A program made the position numbers and the translations under genes. A stretch of DNA of 64,000 nt from an uncultured delta proteobacterium (GTDB taxonomy: Bacteria; Myxococcota_A; Polyangia; Polyangiales; Polyangiaceae), in assembly GCA_963696385.1 (NCBI GenBank), contig CAVOKF010000001.1, positions 192,001 through 256,000 on the forward strand, in the 5' to 3' direction. Below, piece by piece: positions 1-9,100 of this stretch. A model generated the notes under the pieces. The model worked only from the letters and a program-made list of their open reading frames with translations, searched no databases and was not told the origin of the DNA. How positions within the stretch are numbered: position 1 is the first letter of the stretch; each line of letters starts with the position of its first letter.

Positions 1-7
1 ATCATCG

Positions 8-30
8 GTGACCTTGCGGCAACACTGCGG
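8..30 (+). repeat. IS66 terminal inverted repeat (left in window)
   Basis: 19/23 match to the reverse complement of 3657-3679. Confidence 0.85.
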
Positions 31-107
31 TGAGCGGTCGTGACGCGGAGGCGTGGGTGTAAAATAGAGCTTGCGTTCTAAAAAATGACGCGATACGGAT
101 CGCGCCC

Positions 108-983
108 ATGGAGGCATTGCTTCGATATCGAGGACGCGAGGTGCGCGCCGGCGACGTGGCGTTTCTGCGAGAGCTGATCGCCGCGAGTCCGGGGACCAGT
201 CGCCGAGCGTTGTCGTTCAAGGTTTGTGAGGCGTGGGGTTGGGCGCAACCCAACGGGACGTTGTGCGATGCGGTCTGTCGCGGGCTGATGCTGCGATTGC
301 ACCGGGAAGGCCACGTGGAGCTGCCGCCGGCGCGATGGCGGAGTCAGCAGCCGCGTCGGCACGCGGTCGTGGATCATGTGGATGTCCCGGCGCGCCCGCT
401 GGCGGTTCCGCTCGCGGAGCTCGGTCCCCTGGACATTCGGCAGGTTCGACGCACGCCCGAGGAGTCGCTGGTCAAGTCGCTGGTCCAGCAGCATCACTAT
501 CTGGGGTACACGCATCCGGTCGGCGAGCACCTCAAGTACCTGGTATCGGCGGCCGGACAGCCGATCGCGTGTTTCTGCTGGTCGTCGGCCGCGCGGCATC
601 TGGGGCCTCGGGATCGCTACATCGGCTGGTCCAAGGAGCAGCGAAGGGCCCATATTCGGTTTGTCGCCTACCAGAGCCGGTTTCTGATTTTGCCGTGGGT
701 GAAGGTGCCGCATCTGGCGTCGCATCTGCTCGGCGCCATTTCGCGCCGGCTTTCGGACGACTGGCAGCGAGTCTACCGGCATCCGATCTACTTCACCGAA
801 ACGTTCGTCGATCCGGATCGTTTTCGTGGCACCTGCTACCGCGCGGCCAACTGGACCGTTTTGGGCATCACGACCGGCCGCGGAAAAGACGACCAGACGC
901 ATGCCGCGAATCGTTCCCTCAAACAGCTGTTCGGATATCCGCTGGTCGGCGACTTCCGAAAACGCCTGCTCGGTGGGTACTGA
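108..983 (+). CDS. DUF4338 (DruA-like) domain protein
   Basis: SRRALS..VCE.WGW..PNG N-terminus, HHYLG, RDRYIGW, SRFLILPWV.VPHLAS, ETFVDP.RF.GTCYRAANW..LG.T.GRG motifs. Confidence 0.85.
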   Translation: MEALLRYRGREVRAGDVAFLRELIAASPGTSRRALSFKVCEAWGWAQPNGTLCDAVCRGLMLRLHREGHVELPPARWRSQQPRRHAVVDHVDVPARPLAVPLAELGPLDIRQVRRTPEESLVKSLVQQHHYLGYTHPVGEHLKYLVSAAGQPIACFCWSSAARHLGPRDRYIGWSKEQRRAHIRFVAYQSRFLILPWVKVPHLASHLLGAISRRLSDDWQRVYRHPIYFTETFVDPDRFRGTCYRAANWTVLGITTGRGKDDQTHAANRSLKQLFGYPLVGDFRKRLLGGY

Positions 984-984
984 C

Positions 985-2709
985 GTGGATCGCACGCCCG
1001 TCCGTGACGTCGACCTGAACGACCTGCCGCCGATGCTGGAGCGCATCCGGGCGGTCGTCTGTGACGACGACTACCACCTCATCGAAGCGCTTGCGACGAC
1101 CGTGATCGAGATGACCCGCGAGCTGCGCAAGACCCACGCCACGCTGACGCGGGTGCGGCGCCTCTTCGGACTCACGGGCAATGAGAAGACCGCTCACATC
1201 AAGGCCGACGTGGCCAACCCTGCGTCGCAGACGGCCCATCCGGCGGTCGAGCCGCAAGACGCGCCCGCGAGCGATCCCAGCGCCACCCCCGCGGCCGCGG
1301 CGAATGCGCCGGAGCCATCGGCGCCCCCCACGAAAGAAAAGCGCAAGGGTCACGGACGCGTGCCCGCCTCCGCCTATCGCGCGGCGCAGCACGTCACCGT
1401 GGATCACGAGTCGCTGCGGCGGGGAGACTCGTGCCCGCTCTGCACACAAGGCCGTGTCTACGAGCTGGCCGCCCCCGCGACCCTCGTTCGGATCGTCGGG
1501 CGGGCTCCGCTGGGGGCCGCCTGCTTTCACTGCAAGCAGCTTCGCTGCGGCGCCTGCGGCCACGTGTTCACCGCTCGTCCGCCGCCCGAGGCCCAGGGAG
1601 AAAAGTGCGACGAGTCCGCCAGCAGCATGATCGCCGTGATGCACTACGGAGCGGGCGTTCCCTTCCATCGACTCGAGAAGCTGCAGGACAATCTCGGTAC
1701 GCCCGTCCCTGCGTCGACCCAGTGGGATGTCCTGCGCGACCGCGTCGATCGGGTCGAGCCGGTCTACAAGGAGCTCAAGCGCATCGCCGCCCAGGCCGAG
1801 CTCTTGCACGTCGACGATAGCCACATGCGCATCTTGAGCCTCATGGGCAAGCGCCGCGCCGACTTGCTCGCGAAAGGAACACTCGAGGCCCCCGAGCGCA
1901 CAGGCTTGTTCACGACCGCCATCGTCTCGATCATCGCGTCACTCGGCGTCATCGCGCTATTTTTCACGGGGCGAAAGCATGCGGGAGAAAACCTCGCCGA
2001 GCTGCTGAAACAACGAGCCCCAGACCGGCCTGTCCCTCTGCTCATGAGTGATGCCCTTTCGCGCAACGTCCCCGACGGCCATGACGTCATCGAGATCAAT
2101 TGCATCTCCCACGGGCGACGCAAGGTCGTCGACGAGGTCGCCAACTACCCCGACGAGTGCCTCGCGCTTCTCGAGCGGCTCGCGGCGGTTTACAAGGTCG
2201 ACCACGACTGCAAAAAGCAAGGCCTCTCGGACGACGAGCGATTACGGGTGCACCAGCGACTCAGCGCGCCCGTCATGGGGGATCTGCAGAAGTGGATGAC
2301 CGCTCAGCTCGACGAAAAGCGCATCGAGCCCCACTCCGACCTCGGGCAGGCCTTCCACTATTTCCTCAAACGGTGGGACAAATTCACGGTTTTTCTCCGT
2401 GTTCCGGGAGCCCCGCTCGACAATAACCTGTGCGAGCGTGTCCTCAAGATGGCGATTCGGTTGAGAAACGTGTCGTTCTTTTACAGAAGCGAGCTCGGTG
2501 CGCGCGTCGGCGACATCTATATGACCCTCATCCACACCGCCGAGCTGCACCACCAAAATCCCTTCGATTACCTCACCGCGCTGCAACGCCATTCCAAGGC
2601 CGTCGCCGAGGCTCCCGGCGACTGGCTCCCCTGGAACTACAAGGCCACCCTCGCACGGCGCGGCGCCTCGCCGAGCGGCGGCGGCGACGATACGCGTGCC
2701 GCCGCCTAG
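985..2709 (+). CDS. tnpC: IS66-family DDE transposase TnpC
   Basis: KGHGR, zinc ribbon CPLC...CGACGH, DDE motifs LHVDDS / LMSDAL / DNNLCERVLK, C-terminal NPFDYL...WLPWNY; GTG start just after the DUF4338 stop. Confidence 0.9.
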   Translation: MDRTPVRDVDLNDLPPMLERIRAVVCDDDYHLIEALATTVIEMTRELRKTHATLTRVRRLFGLTGNEKTAHIKADVANPASQTAHPAVEPQDAPASDPSATPAAAANAPEPSAPPTKEKRKGHGRVPASAYRAAQHVTVDHESLRRGDSCPLCTQGRVYELAAPATLVRIVGRAPLGAACFHCKQLRCGACGHVFTARPPPEAQGEKCDESASSMIAVMHYGAGVPFHRLEKLQDNLGTPVPASTQWDVLRDRVDRVEPVYKELKRIAAQAELLHVDDSHMRILSLMGKRRADLLAKGTLEAPERTGLFTTAIVSIIASLGVIALFFTGRKHAGENLAELLKQRAPDRPVPLLMSDALSRNVPDGHDVIEINCISHGRRKVVDEVANYPDECLALLERLAAVYKVDHDCKKQGLSDDERLRVHQRLSAPVMGDLQKWMTAQLDEKRIEPHSDLGQAFHYFLKRWDKFTVFLRVPGAPLDNNLCERVLKMAIRLRNVSFFYRSELGARVGDIYMTLIHTAELHHQNPFDYLTALQRHSKAVAEAPGDWLPWNYKATLARRGASPSGGGDDTRAAA

Positions 2710-2730
2710 ACGGCGATGAGCGCGGCCGGC

Positions 2731-3108
2731 TTACGCCGCCGCGACGTCCGGCGTCACGGAACGCCACGGGCTCGCCGCCTGCGTCGCCTCCGGATTGCCA
2801 CCCATCAGCAGCACCTGCACTTGGTGCGCCAGCAGCTGGCGAGTCTTCTCGTCGCCAGCGCCGCTTCGTGGCCAATGTGCAAATCGACCCTGCGACAAAC
2901 GCTTTTGGCAGAGCCAGAATCCCTGCCCATCATACGCCAAAATCTTAATCGCGGTCCCCCGACGACTTCGAAATACGAACACTGCTCCCGAAAACGGATC
3001 GCTCGACAAGATCTGCCGGCACACCCGGCACATCCCGTCGATCCCCCGCCGAAAGTCCACCGGCTCCACCGCAACCAGAATCCGCATCTGCGGCGTGAGC
3101 TGGATCAT
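2731..3108 (-). CDS. tnpB: IS66 accessory protein TnpB
   Basis: MIQLTPQMRILVAVEPVDFRRGIDG...FVFRSRR..IKIL.YDGQGFWLCQKRL..GRF. Confidence 0.92.
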   Translation of the reverse strand: MIQLTPQMRILVAVEPVDFRRGIDGMCRVCRQILSSDPFSGAVFVFRSRRGTAIKILAYDGQGFWLCQKRLSQGRFAHWPRSGAGDEKTRQLLAHQVQVLLMGGNPEATQAASPWRSVTPDVAAA

Positions 3109-3518
3109 CGCTCGCGTCTCCAGAAGGCGTGCGCCAATCCGACCACGTCCAACCCGCTCGCGCCCGTCACCTCCACGCGCAGCCGCTCTCCGCCTCGACC
3201 CTCGAGCTCGATCACCGTCCGGCTCGACCCGTCCGCCGTCCTCGCCGCCGGCATCGCCACTTCGATGAACGACGGCGACGTCGTCTCGATCGCCGAACCC
3301 GTCGACGCTTGGCTCATCCGGTCCTTCAGCCCTTGGTAATTCAAACGCGTCGCCCGCGACGTCGCCCACACCCCTTCGCGGCGAGCCACCTCGATCGCCG
3401 CGTTCCACAGCTCCTGCGGCACCCTCGACCGCTTGCCTCCGCATCCGGCTCGCCACCGCTCTATCCGCCCGCGCAGACTTTCTAGAGCGCCCGTTGCCCC
3501 GATACTCGTTCGATTCAT
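3105..3518 (-). CDS. IS66 TnpA-like accessory protein
   Basis: ERWR...RVPQELWNAAIEVARREGV...L.Y..LK and FIEV motifs; GGAGG RBS; 4-bp overlap with tnpB. Confidence 0.7.
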   Translation of the reverse strand: MNRTSIGATGALESLRGRIERWRAGCGGKRSRVPQELWNAAIEVARREGVWATSRATRLNYQGLKDRMSQASTGSAIETTSPSFIEVAMPAARTADGSSRTVIELEGRGGERLRVEVTGASGLDVVGLAHAFWRRER

Positions 3519-3656
3519 CAGGTCTTCCTCCTGACCGCGACGCTGCCCGAGTCACGCGTCGACTTCACGCACTGTTGCCGAATGCCACCGCCGCCCGCCG
3601 CGACCCGCCCCTCTCGCACGCCCCCCCCGCCAGACCCCCCCCTCGTACTCCCCGCC

Positions 3657-3679
3657 CCGCAGCCGTGCCGCAAGGACAC
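3657..3679 (-). repeat. IS66 terminal inverted repeat (right in window)
   Basis: Pairs with 8-30 and is followed by the CATCATCG target duplication. Confidence 0.85.
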
Positions 3680-5206
3680 CATCATCGCTCGCGCTGACTT
3701 CGTCGTGCCCATCGCGATCCGGGCAAGGCTAACGAGCGTCAGGCCGAGCACGGTCGCAAACGTGTGCAGGCGCAGGGAGGTGTCGGCCCATTGGTGCGAG
3801 GGTCCCCAGGGAACCACGCCGCCCTTCTTCGATCGGCGGAAGACCTCCTCGACGCACCATTGACCGCGGCAAGCGGTCACAATCCGTTCATTGGACCAGC
3901 TGTGTCTGTCGGTGCAGAGCACCCGTTTGCCGAGGCGTGTTCGCTCGAGCTCGCGTCGTCGGATGGGGTCGACGCTCCACTGCAACGTTGGGGCGTCCTC
4001 GGTGCCGCCGACGTGGGTGACCACGAAGGATGTGAGGTGTTCACGTCGAAGCGTTTTGGCGATACGGGCCTGCAGAGCGTCTCGTCGGATGCGCCCAGCA
4101 GTTACGCGTCGCTCGAGTTTCGCCAACTCGACTTTCGCCTTCTTCAAGGCCGCTGCGATTCCGCGCTTCTGCCCGGCGAGAAGTTCCTGGCTGTCGACCA
4201 CAACCAGCGTTCGGTCAAGATCGCCGACAGACGTGCGAAGACGTGCGGCGCGCACGTGACGGAGTCGGCCTGACAGAGGCTTCATCGCTCCGCGGCCCGC
4301 TGCTTCTGCGAGCGCCTTCTCAGCGGCCTTCGTGCCGAGCGGCAATGACACGAGCGTGTAGTAGCCAGCAACATCGAGATTCAGCTCCGTCTGCTCGCCC
4401 CAGGAGCCACCATCGCGCACGATCGTTCGCTCTCCCGGTTGCTTGCGTTCCTCGGCCGCGTCCAAAGCATCGTGGAGCCGTGCCAGTCCACCGAGGCAGT
4501 CTTCCAGAACCGTATGGTCGGATGCATTGCCAGCATACGTCCGGTGAAGCAACGGGACGTGTCCAGTCTCGGTCACGAGTACACCAAGACCCACTACGCG
4601 GAGGTCAGCGCGTTTGCTTTTTGCGTGCCCGCGACGCGCCAGATCTCCCTCGGTTGTTGTGGCGATGTACGTGTCAAAATTCGTCGTGTCGAACGCGAGC
4701 ACATTCGTGCCGAGGTCGAACTTCGACACTGCGGCCCGGGCCAACTCGATCTGCGCCGTCTCCAGCTGCGCGTCAGTCGCCGTCGCTGCAAGGCGATGGA
4801 ATTCCTGTCCGGTGAACGACTTCGCAGAAAGGCAGGACACCCGCGGGATCGCATCCGACAAGAATGCGCTCAGGTGGCACTTCGCGGCGGGTGAACACGC
4901 TCGCTGCACGGCAACCGCGAGCACCATTTCACCAAGGCTCACGCTCTTCGCTCCTCCACTCCAGCCGCACGCACGATTGAGCGTGCCGACGACGTCTAAC
5001 TGCTCCGCCACCCAGACCAGAGCCCCAACGTCGCCGATAGGACGTCGGCCCACCGTCCGCAGCTGTGCGAGCTTCACGCTCACGGGCATCTCCGCCGGTC
5101 CAAGGATGGCCTGCCGAGAATACGACTGCCCGGCGGCTGCGTCCCAGACCGCTTGCGCAGCGATGCGGTAACGGTTGCCATTGACGAGCTTCTCCGTGAA
5201 GTGCAT
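3680..5206 (-). pseudogene. IS1634-family transposase interrupted near its C-terminus by the IS66 element
   Basis: LAFDTTN, RGHAK.KR.DLR.VGL, P..HRTY.GN..D, IVRDGG, QW.VEEVFR..K and H.F..VLGL motifs; the frame runs into the IS66 end after ...ARAMM. Confidence 0.82.
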
Positions 5207-5404
5207 TTCTTTCCACTATCCCGTGTCGCCAGCGATGGAAAGAGAAAACGCCGCAAACGTAAGCCTCCCGTGACGGCAATGCCTCGCTCCGCGTCGCGAT
5301 TTTGCGAAAGTAGGGCTAGAGCGTACGGGAATAGGCGTCGCGCGCTTTCGCAACAGCCTATAACTAAAGCGCTCGGCCACCTCTGCCAGCGCTAGGCAGT
5401 GACG

Positions 5405-5420
5405 CGGCAGGACATTTGCA
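5405..5420 (+). promoter_or_regulatory. sigma-54 -24/-12 motif
   Basis: CGGCAGGACATTTGCA (GG-N10-GC), 12 bp before ATG 5433. Confidence 0.55.
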
Positions 5421-5432
5421 CTGCACGATCGC

Positions 5433-5534
5433 ATGAAGATCTCGATGACGCTCGGTGCTTGTTCCATCCTCGGCCTGGCCGCCTGCGGCGGAGCGGTGCA
5501 CGATCGCCGCGTCGACGTGACGTTGGCCCAGTGA
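5433..5534 (+). pseudogene. Collapsed OmpA/Pal-like lipoprotein minigene (33 aa)
   Basis: MKISMTLGACSILGLAAC-GGA lipobox signal fused in frame to VHDRRVDVTLAQ*, identical to the end of the OmpA-like fragment at 11122-11309. Confidence 0.65.
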
Positions 5535-5914
5535 AGCGAAAAGTCATCCTCGTCGTGGACGACGACGAGCAAACGCGAGCGGCGCTCGACATCGTTCTCT
5601 CTCCTCATTACTGCATGAGGTTCGCGGTGGATGGGGTCGATGGATATTTGAGGGCCAATGATCTGCCAGGGCCCGATCTGATCATTGCCGATGTAGCGAT
5701 GCCCAACCTCGATGGCTTGGCGATGGTCCGGCGCATTCGCGACAATCACGCGCTCGGCAGCCTGCCCGTCCTGTTTCTGACCGGGCAGGTTTCGCGGGCG
5801 GTCGTGGCCGAAAGGATCGGGCTGTCCGGCGGTGCATTCGCCTACCTTTGGAAGCCAACCGACTCCGGGCTACTGCAGAAGAAGGTCCGAAGCTTGCTCT
5901 GGGCCTAGGTGCGG
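5495..5914 (+). repeat. Direct repeat copy 1 (about 420 bp) containing a receiver gene
   Basis: 5495-5902 reads identical to 11270-11677 (offset 5775), then 2 mismatches to 5914. Confidence 0.95.
5531..5908 (+). CDS. Single-domain response regulator (copy 1)
   Basis: ILVVDDD, PDLIIADVAMPNLDGL, LFLTG, KP. Confidence 0.85.
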   Translation: MKRKVILVVDDDEQTRAALDIVLSPHYCMRFAVDGVDGYLRANDLPGPDLIIADVAMPNLDGLAMVRRIRDNHALGSLPVLFLTGQVSRAVVAERIGLSGGAFAYLWKPTDSGLLQKKVRSLLWA

Positions 5915-6208
5915 CAGGGGAGGGGCGGAAGGTTCACAGGCTCCAATTCTGGGGCGCATCGCCACGCGGGGACGAAACGGCCGATCGGGCAACCCCGTTG
6001 GTACCTTGCGAATCCACACCGCAGTTTGCTCGCTGCGTGTCCGCTTCGGCGACGTGTCGCAGACAGGTCTCCCGTCGAGCCCGCGGTCGACGACGCACGG
6101 CGATCGTCGACCGGACTCGGTCGGGATCGGGGCCTTAAACGCTTGCGATGAGCCATTCGCCTAGCGGATACGATCGGCTGTGCGGCTTCGCGCTCCCGGT
6201 GGGTTGAA

Positions 6209-6224
6209 TGGCACGGACCGTGCG
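6209..6224 (+). promoter_or_regulatory. sigma-54 -24/-12 motif upstream of tal-pgi
   Basis: TGGCACGGACCGTGCG followed by a GAGGAGG RBS and GTG 6250. Confidence 0.6.
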
Positions 6225-6249
6225 ATCGGACTGCCATGAGGAGGCCTCC

Positions 6250-9100
6250 GTGGATGTAAAAGAGCTTCATGAAAAATACGGCCAATCGGTCTGGCTCGAC
6301 GACATGCGGCGCCACCGTCTGCAAAGCGGCGATTTTTCGCGGATGGTGCAGAACGATGGCATCCGCGGCGCGACCTCGAATCCCTCCATCTTCGAGAAGG
6401 CCATCGCGGGCAGCACCGACTATGGCCCGGCCCTCGAGCGCTACGAAAAGCGCAAAGACGCGACTGCGTCGGCCATCTACGAACACTTGGCCATCCAAGA
6501 CATTCAGCAAGCGGCCGACCTTCTCCGTCCTGTGTACGAGCAGTCCGAGCGACGCGACGGCTACGTCAGCATGGAGGTCTCTCCCTACCTCGCGCACGAC
6601 ACCCAGGCGACGCTCGACGAGGCGACCCGCCTGTGGAGGACCGTGCGTCGCGACAACCTGATGATCAAGATTCCGGCGACGCCCGAGGGGGTTCCGGTGA
6701 TCCGAACGCTCATCGGCCAGGGAATCAACGTCAACGCGACCCTCCTGTTCTCGCGCGCCGTGTGTCGGCAGGTGGCTGAGGCGTATATGGACGGCCTCGA
6801 CGCATGGAGTGCGGCCGGCGGAGATTTCACACGCGTCGCGAGCGTCGCGAGCCTGTTCGTCAGTCGCCTGGACGTTCTCGTGGATCCGATGTTGGAGGCG
6901 GGGGCTACGGCGATGTCCGGCGCGCGGCAGGGGCCCCTGCCAAACCTCGTTGGCAAGGTGGCTATCGCCAATGCCAAGCTCGCTTACCAGGACTGGAAAG
7001 ATATGTGCCAGAGCCCGCGCTGGCAGGCGCTCGCCGCCCGTGGGGCCCGCTCACAGCGCCTCTTGTGGGCCAGTACGAGCACCAAGGACCCCCGTTGGAG
7101 CGATGTCGTCTATGTCGAGTCGCTCATCGGCCCGGATACCGTGGACACGATTGCACCCGCGACGCTCGACGCGTTTCGCGACCACGGCAAGGCGTCGAAT
7201 CGCCTCGAGGAAAACGTCGACGACGCGCGGCAGGTCTTGGCCACGCTCGCGCGCTCCGGCATCTCGATCGACGATCTGACCGCGCGCCTTCTCGACGAGG
7301 GCGTCCGACAATTCTCGGCGGCGTTCGACACGCTGCTGGCAGCCATCGAGGCCAAGCGCGACGGTGTGCTGAAGTCGGCCCTCGACCGGATGAGCTACCG
7401 ACTGCCCGCCCCAATCCATGGCAAAGTAAACGAGGCGCTCGACGACTGGCGGGCCACGGGCAAGCAGCGGCGGCTCTGGGCGCGCGACGCGTCCATGTGG
7501 ACTGGCAACGACGAGAGCCGGTGGCTCGACTGGCTCGACATCGTCGAGCGAGAGCAAGCGAGTGTGAGGCGGCTGACGCTGTTCGCCAAAGAAGCCCGGA
7601 CGAAGTTCACGCACGCGGTCGTTTTGGGAATGGGTGGCTCGAGCCTCTGCCCCGATGTCTTGTCGCGCACGTTCGGCCCGATCGTGGGATTTCCCGAGCT
7701 GGGAGTTCTCGACTCGACCGACCCCGCGCAGATCCGGACGATGCAAGCGCGCATCGAGCTACCCAAGACGCTCTTTATCGTCTCGAGCAAGTCGGGCACG
7801 ACACTCGAGCCGAATATCCTCAAGGACTACTTCTACGATTGCCTTTGCCAGACCGTCGGCGAGGACGAGGCGGCCAAGCATTTCATCGTCGTGACCGACC
7901 CAAACTCGGTCCTGCAAGGGCTTGCCGAATCGGAGCACTTCGCACCGGTGTTTTTCGGCGTACGGGGTATCGGCGGGCGATACTCGGCGCTGTCCAACTT
8001 CGGCATGGTGCCCGCCGCGGTCATGGGGCTCGACGTGCCGCGGTTCCTCGAGCGTACGGCGATCATGGTGCACGCGTGCGCGCCGTGCGTGCCGCCCGAG
8101 CAAAACCCAGGTGTCCTGCTCGGCTTGATCCTCGGGACGTCGGGCCCGATCGGGTCGCGACAAAGTCACCCTCATTGCCTCTCCCGGCGTCGCACAGATC
8201 GGAGCGTGGCTCGAACAGCTTCTGGCCGAATCCACCGGCAAGCAGGGCAAGGGCATCATCCCCATCGACCGGGAGCCTCTCGGCAAGCCGGAGGTGTATG
8301 GAGTCGACCGACTGTTCGCCTACCTGAGACTCGACGGTGCGGCGGATCCGCAGCAGGATGCCGCGATCGATGCGCTCGAGAAGGCGGGACAGCCGGTCGT
8401 TCGCATCGCGATCGGCGAGCCCCACGATCTGGGGCAGGAATTCTTTCGATGGGAAGTCGCGGTGGCCGTAGCCGGCGCGATCATCGGCATCGACCCCTTC
8501 AATCAGCCGGATGTCGAAGCCAGCAAGGTGGCGGCGCGCGCCCTGACCGATGCCGTCGACAAGACCGGCACACTGCCGCCCGAGAGCCCGTTCTATCGAG
8601 AAGGTGCGATCCAGTTGTTCGCGGACGAAAAGAACCTCGTCGCTCTCGATCGGGGGGCCGGTTCCGACAAAACGCTGCATGGATACTTGCGAGCCCATCT
8701 GAAGCGCTTGGAGCCGGGCGACTACTTCGCGCTTCTCGCCTACGTCGAACGCGATGACGCGCACGACCGAACACTTCAGACGATTCGGCGCGCCGTCCGA
8801 GATTCGCGCCGCGTGGCCACGTGCGTCGGCTTCGGTCCTCGGTTCCTTCATTCGACCGGACAGGCCTACAAGGGCGGGCCCAATCGTGGCGTGTTTCTTC
8901 AGCTGACGTGCGACGACCTGCACGACCTGCGGGTTCCTGCGCACCGCTACACCTTCGGCACGGTGAAGGCGGCACAGGCGCGGGGTGACTTCCGCGTGCT
9001 CGCGCAGCGTGATCGCCGCGCTTTGCGCGTGCATCTGGGCAACGACGTCGATCATGGCCTCGACATGCTCCGCGAGGCGATCGCCCGGGTGCTCGCGTGA
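6250..9100 (+). CDS. tal: Bifunctional transaldolase / glucose-6-phosphate isomerase, +1 frameshift near 8143
   Basis: GQSVWLD, GATSNPSIFEKAI, IKIPAT, LLWASTSTK, then GMGGSSL, SKSGTTLE, GGRYSALS; continues in the next frame as ARSGRDKVTL...WLEQLLAESTGK...PFNQPDVE...GPRFLHSTGQ. Confidence 0.9.

Follow-up and report, generated by a model that had tools for sequence, protein, structure and literature searches.

The locus described here raises the question of why an insertion sequence should carry, directly ahead of its transposase gene, a further gene whose product resembles a DNA-modifying enzyme of a phage. The locus occupies positions 8 to 3679 of a window of 64,000 nucleotides (the whole stretch of DNA analysed) from contig CAVOKF010000001.1 of an uncultured delta proteobacterium of the Polyangiaceae, and is a mobile, recently active element of the IS66 type with a length of 3672 bp. 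Besides tnpA, tnpB, and tnpC, it contains a gene of the DUF4338 domain family (PF14236), hereafter the enzyme gene, encoding a protein with a predicted GNAT fold that is closest to Mom of phage Mu. Herein, we propose that a Mom-like mark, made together with the transposase, would shield new copies of the element and the DNA that carries them from restriction, a reading to which we assign a probability of about 0.42.

The anatomy and the mobility of the element are near certain (Table 1). As the initial annotation had described, the ends are imperfect inverted repeats of 23 bp, in which 19 of the 23 bases match, and the 8-bp target duplication CATCATCG is found on both sides, with seven of the eight left bases inside the window. 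Three full copies were observed in the genome sampled (8 contigs, 6.94 Mb), namely that of the window, one that is 100% identical, and one that is 97.9% identical, together with two damaged copies and fragments; the three lie between different 8-bp duplications, those of the other two copies being AACGTAAG and GGCTACTT. The genome also contains the empty site at three places, all within copies of an IS1634-like element, with 128 of 128 bases identical and a single CATCATCG, and contigs from public runs also join the left flank directly to position 3680. The opposite orientation of tnpA-tnpB relative to the enzyme gene and tnpC was confirmed by contigs from four runs (X2, X6, X11, and X15), which span the tnpC/tnpB junction, and by the two other full copies. 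The non-canonical gene order and a long-read-type assembly with a few indels among copies might have pointed to a one-off inversion, a chimera of two elements, or a misassembly, but this explanation is refuted by the three copies with separate duplications, the empty sites, the independent junction contigs, and 19 relatives of the same layout in several phyla. No joined-end circle junction was found in the contigs of 8 runs, and contigs cannot prove its absence; parts of the element are present in contigs of RNA runs X15-X17, which say nothing of transcription, strand, or start. The insertion point lies near the 3' end of an IS1634-like transposase gene (3680-5206, minus strand). Each of the other two full copies also has a flank that occurs more than once in the genome, so that a preference for other mobile DNA as target is possible.

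Table 1. Features of the IS66-type element and its insertion site, in window coordinates
Feature	Position	Strand	Remarks
Left copy of the target duplication CATCATCG, 7 of 8 bases	1..7		first C lies one base upstream of the window
Terminal inverted repeat, enzyme-gene side	8..30	+	same type of end in relatives of both layouts, consensus GTGTCCTTCCGGCAAG
Promoter-like motif	70..99	+	CTTGCGTTC (70-78), -35 hexamer 71-76, 17-base spacer, TACGGA (94-99); 8 bases before ATG
DUF4338/DruA-domain gene, 291 aa	108..983	+	PF14236 E 6e-33, 114.6 bits; winged-helix-like residues 1-76 and Mom-like GNAT residues ~105-289 (predicted)
Variable loop, residues 254-267, at the place of the Mom insert	867..908	+	greatest difference between the two alleles of the genome
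tnpC, IS66 DDE transposase, 574 aa	985..2709	+	PF03050, NF033517; C-terminal Ala-Ala-Ala
tnpB, 125 aa	2731..3108	-	PF05717, NF033819; C-terminal Ala-Ala-Ala; stop 21 bases from tnpC stop
tnpA-like gene, 137 aa	3105..3518	-	4-base overlap with tnpB start; AGGAGG upstream; homologues at the same place in relatives
Relic inner end, older copy of the family terminal repeat	3563..3589	-	scores 21.3; highest score among 100 shuffles, 12.0
Terminal inverted repeat, tnpA side	3657..3679	-	corresponds to the left end of co-directional relatives
Right target duplication CATCATCG	3680..3687		
IS1634-like transposase gene (target, outside the element)	3688..5206	-	NF033559; uninterrupted copies on C2, C4, and C8

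Canonical IS66 elements carry tnpA, tnpB, and tnpC on one strand and no further gene. In addition to its inverted repeats and 8-bp duplication, the present element resembles the family in TnpC (PF03050, E 3e-40; NF033517, 184 bits against a cut-off of 180) and in TnpB, which matches PF05717 and exceeds the cut-off of NF033819; TnpB and TnpC of IS66 are named in passages of PMC3971601. No Pfam or NCBIfam match was obtained for the gene at 3105-3518, which is presumably tnpA, judging from its position and from the conserved gene upstream of tnpB in relatives. The enzyme gene, as noted in the initial annotation, ends (981-983) one base ahead of a GTG at 985 that would be the start of tnpC. Because the one-strand order of three genes is not seen, the element is an IS66 variant and not a canonical member: a fourth gene is coupled to tnpC, tnpC faces tnpB, the ends start with GTGT/GTGA, and TnpC is only ~24-28% identical to the other IS66 TnpC proteins of the genome. 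Ala-Ala C-termini were observed in 17 of 30 TnpB and 10 of 27 TnpC relatives, against ~2% of gene-like frames in the genome, kin of this sort not being independent; in the window, Ala-Ala-Ala ends lie at 2701-2709 (TnpC) and 2731-2742 (TnpB), and one of the other IS66 TnpC proteins of the genome also has an Ala-Ala end. Such ends resemble ClpXP degradation tags and, by analogy, would make TnpB and TnpC short-lived.

To collect relatives, the enzyme was searched against a set with a single genome for each species, which gave at least 65 loci, some from the same genome, and layouts were assigned using tblastn and Pfam. Among the 65 loci listed, 19 are convergent as in the window, with tnpB reversed behind the enzyme gene and tnpC (3 of these without a tnpA match), and these span several phyla; the layout is thus not a one-off. 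Fifteen are co-directional, with tnpB ahead on the same strand (L027 without a tnpC match, L007 with a distant TnpC). The enzyme gene stands ahead of another IS66 TnpC, neither tnpA nor tnpB being matched, in 9, and ahead of a DUF772-type transposase in 6, of which five have Pfam matches (one over the cut-off) and the sixth is 77% identical to one of those five; tnpC lies behind in 5 loci of no visible layout, and a DDE_Tnp_1 frame in 1. A transposase or IS66 gene therefore adjoins the enzyme gene in 55 of the 65, the other 10 being broken copies or lying at contig ends. The ends are of one kind in both four-gene layouts (consensus as in Table 1, from 32 ends), and 8-bp duplications were also seen in relatives of both (L015 and L038, convergent; L055, co-directional). 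Thus, of the proposal that the element is an IS66 subtype with its own enzyme module, the module stands as a predicted GNAT-fold gene coupled to tnpC; convergence does not define the subtype, because the 15 co-directional loci have the same kind of ends. A reverse search with TnpC gave 29 loci outside this genome, and the upstream side was informative in 18, with the enzyme gene in 16 of them (5 being near-copies of the element). One further locus, L131, is a ~950-bp derivative that retains, between its two ends, nothing but the 3' part of tnpC and is possibly non-autonomous, and a TumE-family toxin gene (PF20126) lies directly behind a two-gene element at L041:2889-3278.

The change of layout left traces in the element. 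When the window was compared with the co-directional locus L002, the block of the enzyme gene and tnpC aligned forward (69%) and the tnpB-tnpA block in reverse. The relic inner end has a twin upstream of tnpA in this sister (L002:334), indicating that the tnpA side is the old left end. The relic lies ~90 bases inside the present end, and it is at this inner position that the convergent relatives L123 and L124, which are closer, have their end; the tnpA-side end was thus extended or replaced. Three layout changes are required by the TnpC trees of 30, 40, and 20 rows, the last set picked from the 40 to remove near-copies and long branches, and also by the enzyme and TnpB trees, where they are forced by starred branches for the enzyme and not for TnpB. 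In the approximately unbiased (AU) test, a single clade of convergent elements, of which the layout would be the mark, was rejected (p=0.00016), and a union of the group of the window with L020/L042 was not (p=0.135), so that at least two layout changes are needed. The convergent layout likely arose more than once, as judged from these trees, and the co-directional layout would be the older state, given the canonical IS66 order and the position of the group of the window inside a co-directional clade beside L002.

A conserved motif might explain why such changes are tolerated. Just ahead of the start of the enzyme gene stands a sequence of the form CTTGCGTTC-N14-TA. The hexamer TTGCGT with at most one change, followed by TC, was found in 37 of 37 sequences of both layouts (that of the window and those of 36 loci whose start is intact), and TA follows the hexamer by 17 bases in 31 of them. 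The distance from the first base of the motif to the start codon is 35-37 bases in 33 of the 37 and 39 and 41 bases in two, and the position of the motif fits by eye in the remaining two, L023 and L050. In co-directional elements the motif lies between tnpB and the enzyme gene, in convergent ones close to the end, and it is also present in L016, which has different ends and no tnpA or tnpB match; in other enzyme clades, this position is taken by CTGGCGTCC or GGACTCCCA. The motif is unlikely to be a copy of the terminal repeat, since elements whose ends read CCTTCCGG or GTAACCG still have CTTGCGTTC in the motif. This spacing leaves no room for a ribosome-binding site, and therefore a leaderless transcript from the motif is likely; a role as operator is possible, and no excess of palindromes over the -10 box was found among 26 promoters (mean stem 3.0, against 3.2 in shuffles). 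Behind the enzyme gene, the next long frame begins between -16 and +14 of its stop in 28 of 38 loci, with a 4-base overlap in 17. From this close next frame and the placement of the motif, the pair looks independent of tnpA-tnpB, and we consider it likely that the enzyme gene and tnpC form a self-contained cassette, which would be the reason for the layout flips. Expression from both ends inward, as initially suggested, is not favored, as the plus-strand unit likely uses the enzyme gene's own motif, which is also found inside co-directional elements.

The likeness of the enzyme to Mom was examined using a structure model built from 42 sequences (pLDDT 85.7), which predicts a GNAT fold over residues 105-289. 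With this predicted model, Mu Mom was the first match in Foldseek (E 1.5e-7, followed by RimI at 3.3e-6) and in VIA-align against 48,161 chains (Z 14.3, root-mean-square deviation 3.5, 163 residues aligned), consistent with the resemblance of DUF4338 to GNAT-fold Mom that had been proposed from sequence. A PHROG family named 'Mom-like' matched at E 0.004, and a sequence search of solved structures with the enzyme gave no match. In an alignment of profiles from 73 and 59 sequences, which was weak but colinear, H130-Y131, S205, D235, R238, and Y244 fell onto H58-Y59, S124, D149, R151, and Y159 of Mom, residues described as important in passages of PMC13219725. H130, R191, and E231 are invariant (73 of 73), S205 is present in 71 of 73, and R191 is likely the equivalent of Mom R111, judging by spacing only. 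The GNAT part is basic (28 K+R versus 14 D+E), and between residues 180 and 215 only 6 of 73 sequences have a classic Q/R-x-x-G-x-G/A motif. The enzyme resembles Mom (PDB 8BV8, PF25680) in its predicted fold, possibly in the H-Y, S, D/E, R, and Y columns as placed by the weak profile alignment, and in being encoded by a transposing element; it differs in sequence (14-18% identity), in an extra winged-helix-like N-terminal domain, and in its context, which is an insertion sequence with coupling to a transposase and no com gene. Residues 1-86, folded alone (pLDDT 78.6), matched many winged-helix domains, all weakly, and this domain fell into unnamed clusters only in the Atlas.

According to passages of PMC13219725, Mom uses Gly-tRNA as donor, places the glycine on adenine N6, and prevents restriction; acyl-CoA, to which the initial annotation pointed, is therefore not the donor of Mom. 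The same passages state that deletion of the HTH-like Mom insert 175-209 abolishes activity, and part of PMC7261163 reports that Mom is toxic when overexpressed, which would fit a tight control. By analogy, the enzyme of the element would modify adenine in DNA.

The enzyme gene is under purifying selection, with ratios of nonsynonymous to synonymous substitution rates (dN/dS) of 0.06-0.39 in 17 of 17 pairs and of 0.11-0.12 in both domains between the two alleles of the genome. These alleles have 83% protein identity and stand on tnpC genes that are 97-99.5% identical. The second allele, comprising the end, the promoter, and the enzyme gene (~80% DNA identity), is found at G000 C6:50442-52719 and C7 from ~1437180, and in L001, L114, and L115, with the switch near window position 930. 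In the copy on C2, a patch of the second allele covers codons 221-267, including the loop at the place of the Mom insert; we can only guess that this loop, residues 254-267, has a role in specificity.

Several results weigh against a Mom-like protective function. The sequence signal is weak, with an hhalign probability of 17.7% (E 0.0014), and of 1.2% against Mom alone, and the lead of Mom over ordinary acetyltransferases of proteins and small molecules is modest, the next VIA-align match having a Z of 12.5. PF25680 does not match the window protein and matches 17 of the 42 members weakly (best E 0.0018); one fused homologue, P0084, passes the curated cut-off, with 29.6 bits. R191 pairs with Mom R111 through its distance from the serine (14 versus 13 residues) and is not aligned by hhalign, residue 235 is D in 35 and E in 30 of the 73 sequences, and the region corresponding to the Mom insert is ~20 residues shorter. 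The winged-helix match is weak (best Z 5.4, no Foldseek match at E 0.001), and passages of PMC13219725 hold that Mom substrates are not predictable from structure. The -10 box of the window lacks the final T and was not called by a consensus scanner. The gene was found in 2 of 72,556 plasmid and 0 of 50,697 phage records, which is thin for a gene aiding entry into new cells, and one of the plasmid matches lies under a gene annotated as ISAs1 transposase. Finally, two of the 18 informative TnpC loci, L135 and L140, have no enzyme gene. L140 (G008:C265), nested inside the clade, has three genes, all with open frames, and retains both ends, and it is present as a single copy with no target duplication; its genome has three PF14236 matches elsewhere, two of which stand ahead of one type of frame that we take to be an ISKra4-type transposase. 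Set beside its presence in 16 of the 18, the loss in L140 indicates that the enzyme gene is usual but can be lost. Overall, two of the features tested, the PF25680 cut-off and the insert, place the enzyme outside the Mom family, but it likely works like Mom.

The distribution of the enzyme extends far beyond IS66. Its profile matched 12,864 clusters at E 0.001, a count that takes in more distant PF14236 relatives, and 2,141 at 1e-30. Among the best 150 of the profile matches, 33 exceed 370 aa, and 22 of these 33 carry a transposase domain of one of seven kinds (Tn5-type 7, DDE_Tnp_1 alone 4, IS66 3, DDE_Tnp_1_assoc 3, DDE_5 3, DDE_3 1, and ISAZ013 1). Some of these fusions may be read-through artefacts, and in one Tn5-type fusion all six cluster members have 773 aa. 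The gene is thus not special to IS66 and accompanies or is fused to many transposase families; this partnership with unrelated transposases would imply a job that is independent of any one transposase surface, most simply a job on DNA. In P0140, P0076, and P0098, the partner of the enzyme domain is a guanylate cyclase domain, MORN repeats, or DUF6788, a fusion that may reflect read-through after insertion. Extra genes of unknown function, conserved as here, occur in other insertion sequences, among them four ISKra4 elements in PMC3942029, and no description of a pairing of DUF4338 with IS66 was found in the passages of the literature searched.

Some databases name such proteins 'Druantia protein DruA', and a passenger defence gene that benefits the host against phage and merely rides the element has accordingly to be considered. 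The PF14236 match (114.6 bits, profile positions 33-226 of 297) gives the enzyme the domain shared with DruA, and the loss in L140 shows that the gene can be lost. Druantia type I operons include druB-druE with a helicase. In the present element, however, the unit bounded by the repeats holds, besides the enzyme gene, IS66 genes only, PADLOC gave no match, and all 5 PF14236 matches of the genome fall in element copies; the one PF09369 match lies on C8, which has no PF14236 match. The enzyme differs from DruA also in standing always beside a transposase, and in-frame fusions and start-stop overlaps with transposases are unusual for cargo. A Druantia system is thus excluded, and a DruA-like passenger appears improbable.

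We therefore return to the protective modification, for which the following scheme is proposed. A cassette consisting of a predicted promoter, a gene for a predicted winged-helix and Mom-like GNAT protein, and tnpC lies inverted against tnpA-tnpB. The motif would act as the promoter of a leaderless message in which translation of the enzyme is coupled to that of tnpC, and since the cassette has its own promoter, it might work in either orientation, which would have allowed the flip at least twice. The N-terminal domain may bind DNA, perhaps at the invariant bases beside the -35 box, and the enzyme would add an acyl or aminoacyl group to adenine N6 in DNA whenever the transposase is made, with protection of new copies and carrier DNA from restriction as the benefit. 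The enzyme is likely a helper that is not required for strand transfer. We infer every functional step of this scheme, and the fold is a predicted one. In a broader form, held a shade more tentatively still, we hypothesize that many unrelated DDE-family insertion sequences have taken up one portable, self-regulating cassette, in which a Mom-like enzyme made with the transposase would place a bulky, undescribed adenine mark, with a swappable specificity loop (residues 254-267) and freedom to flip through its own promoter.

Two other explanations are each unlikely, and neither is negligible. The same DNA chemistry might mark the ends or the promoter of the element itself, as a private switch that limits or times transposition, in the way that Dam methylation times the transposition of IS10 and IS50. 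A winged-helix-like domain, invariant bases next to the -35 box that are specific to each enzyme clade, coupling and fusion of the enzyme to transposases, and rarity on plasmids and phages would all suit such a switch; the partners, however, belong to unrelated transposase families whose ends are unrelated too, no target motif common to them was shown, and the -10 box is not palindromic. Alternatively, and with about the same small chance, the GNAT might have a protein (the transposase or a host factor) or tRNA (charged tRNA, as a mild toxin) as its acylation substrate and so regulate transposition or addict the host. Protein N-acetyltransferases follow closely behind Mom in both fold searches, the insert through which Mom contacts DNA is short in the enzyme, and a DUF4338 protein fused to DndF, called a GNAT in part of PMC10853773, could target proteins, as is suggested there. 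Against this, Mom comes first by fold, Pfam, and PHROG, the conserved residues land on those of Mom, the classic GNAT motif is rare, and the element contains no antitoxin gene. The protective modification of DNA remains the reading that we prefer over both.

Outside the element, the window contains at 5399-5908 what looks like a response-regulator receiver gene and, at 6208-8757, a frame that we take to be transaldolase-like, running into a part like glucose-6-phosphate isomerase, the end of which looks frameshifted.

Insertion sequences are commonly viewed as encoding little beyond their own movement. If the proposed explanation is true, a chemical layer would be added to the biology of insertion sequences, Mom-type hypermodification would reach beyond phages to the mobile DNA of cells, and candidates for DNA-modifying enzymes would be available in their thousands. 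The labels 'DruA' on such genes can inflate the counts of defence systems. The element of the present study is a good test case: it is intact, has moved recently, occurs with two natural alleles on the same backbone, and has a relative in nature from which the gene is missing.

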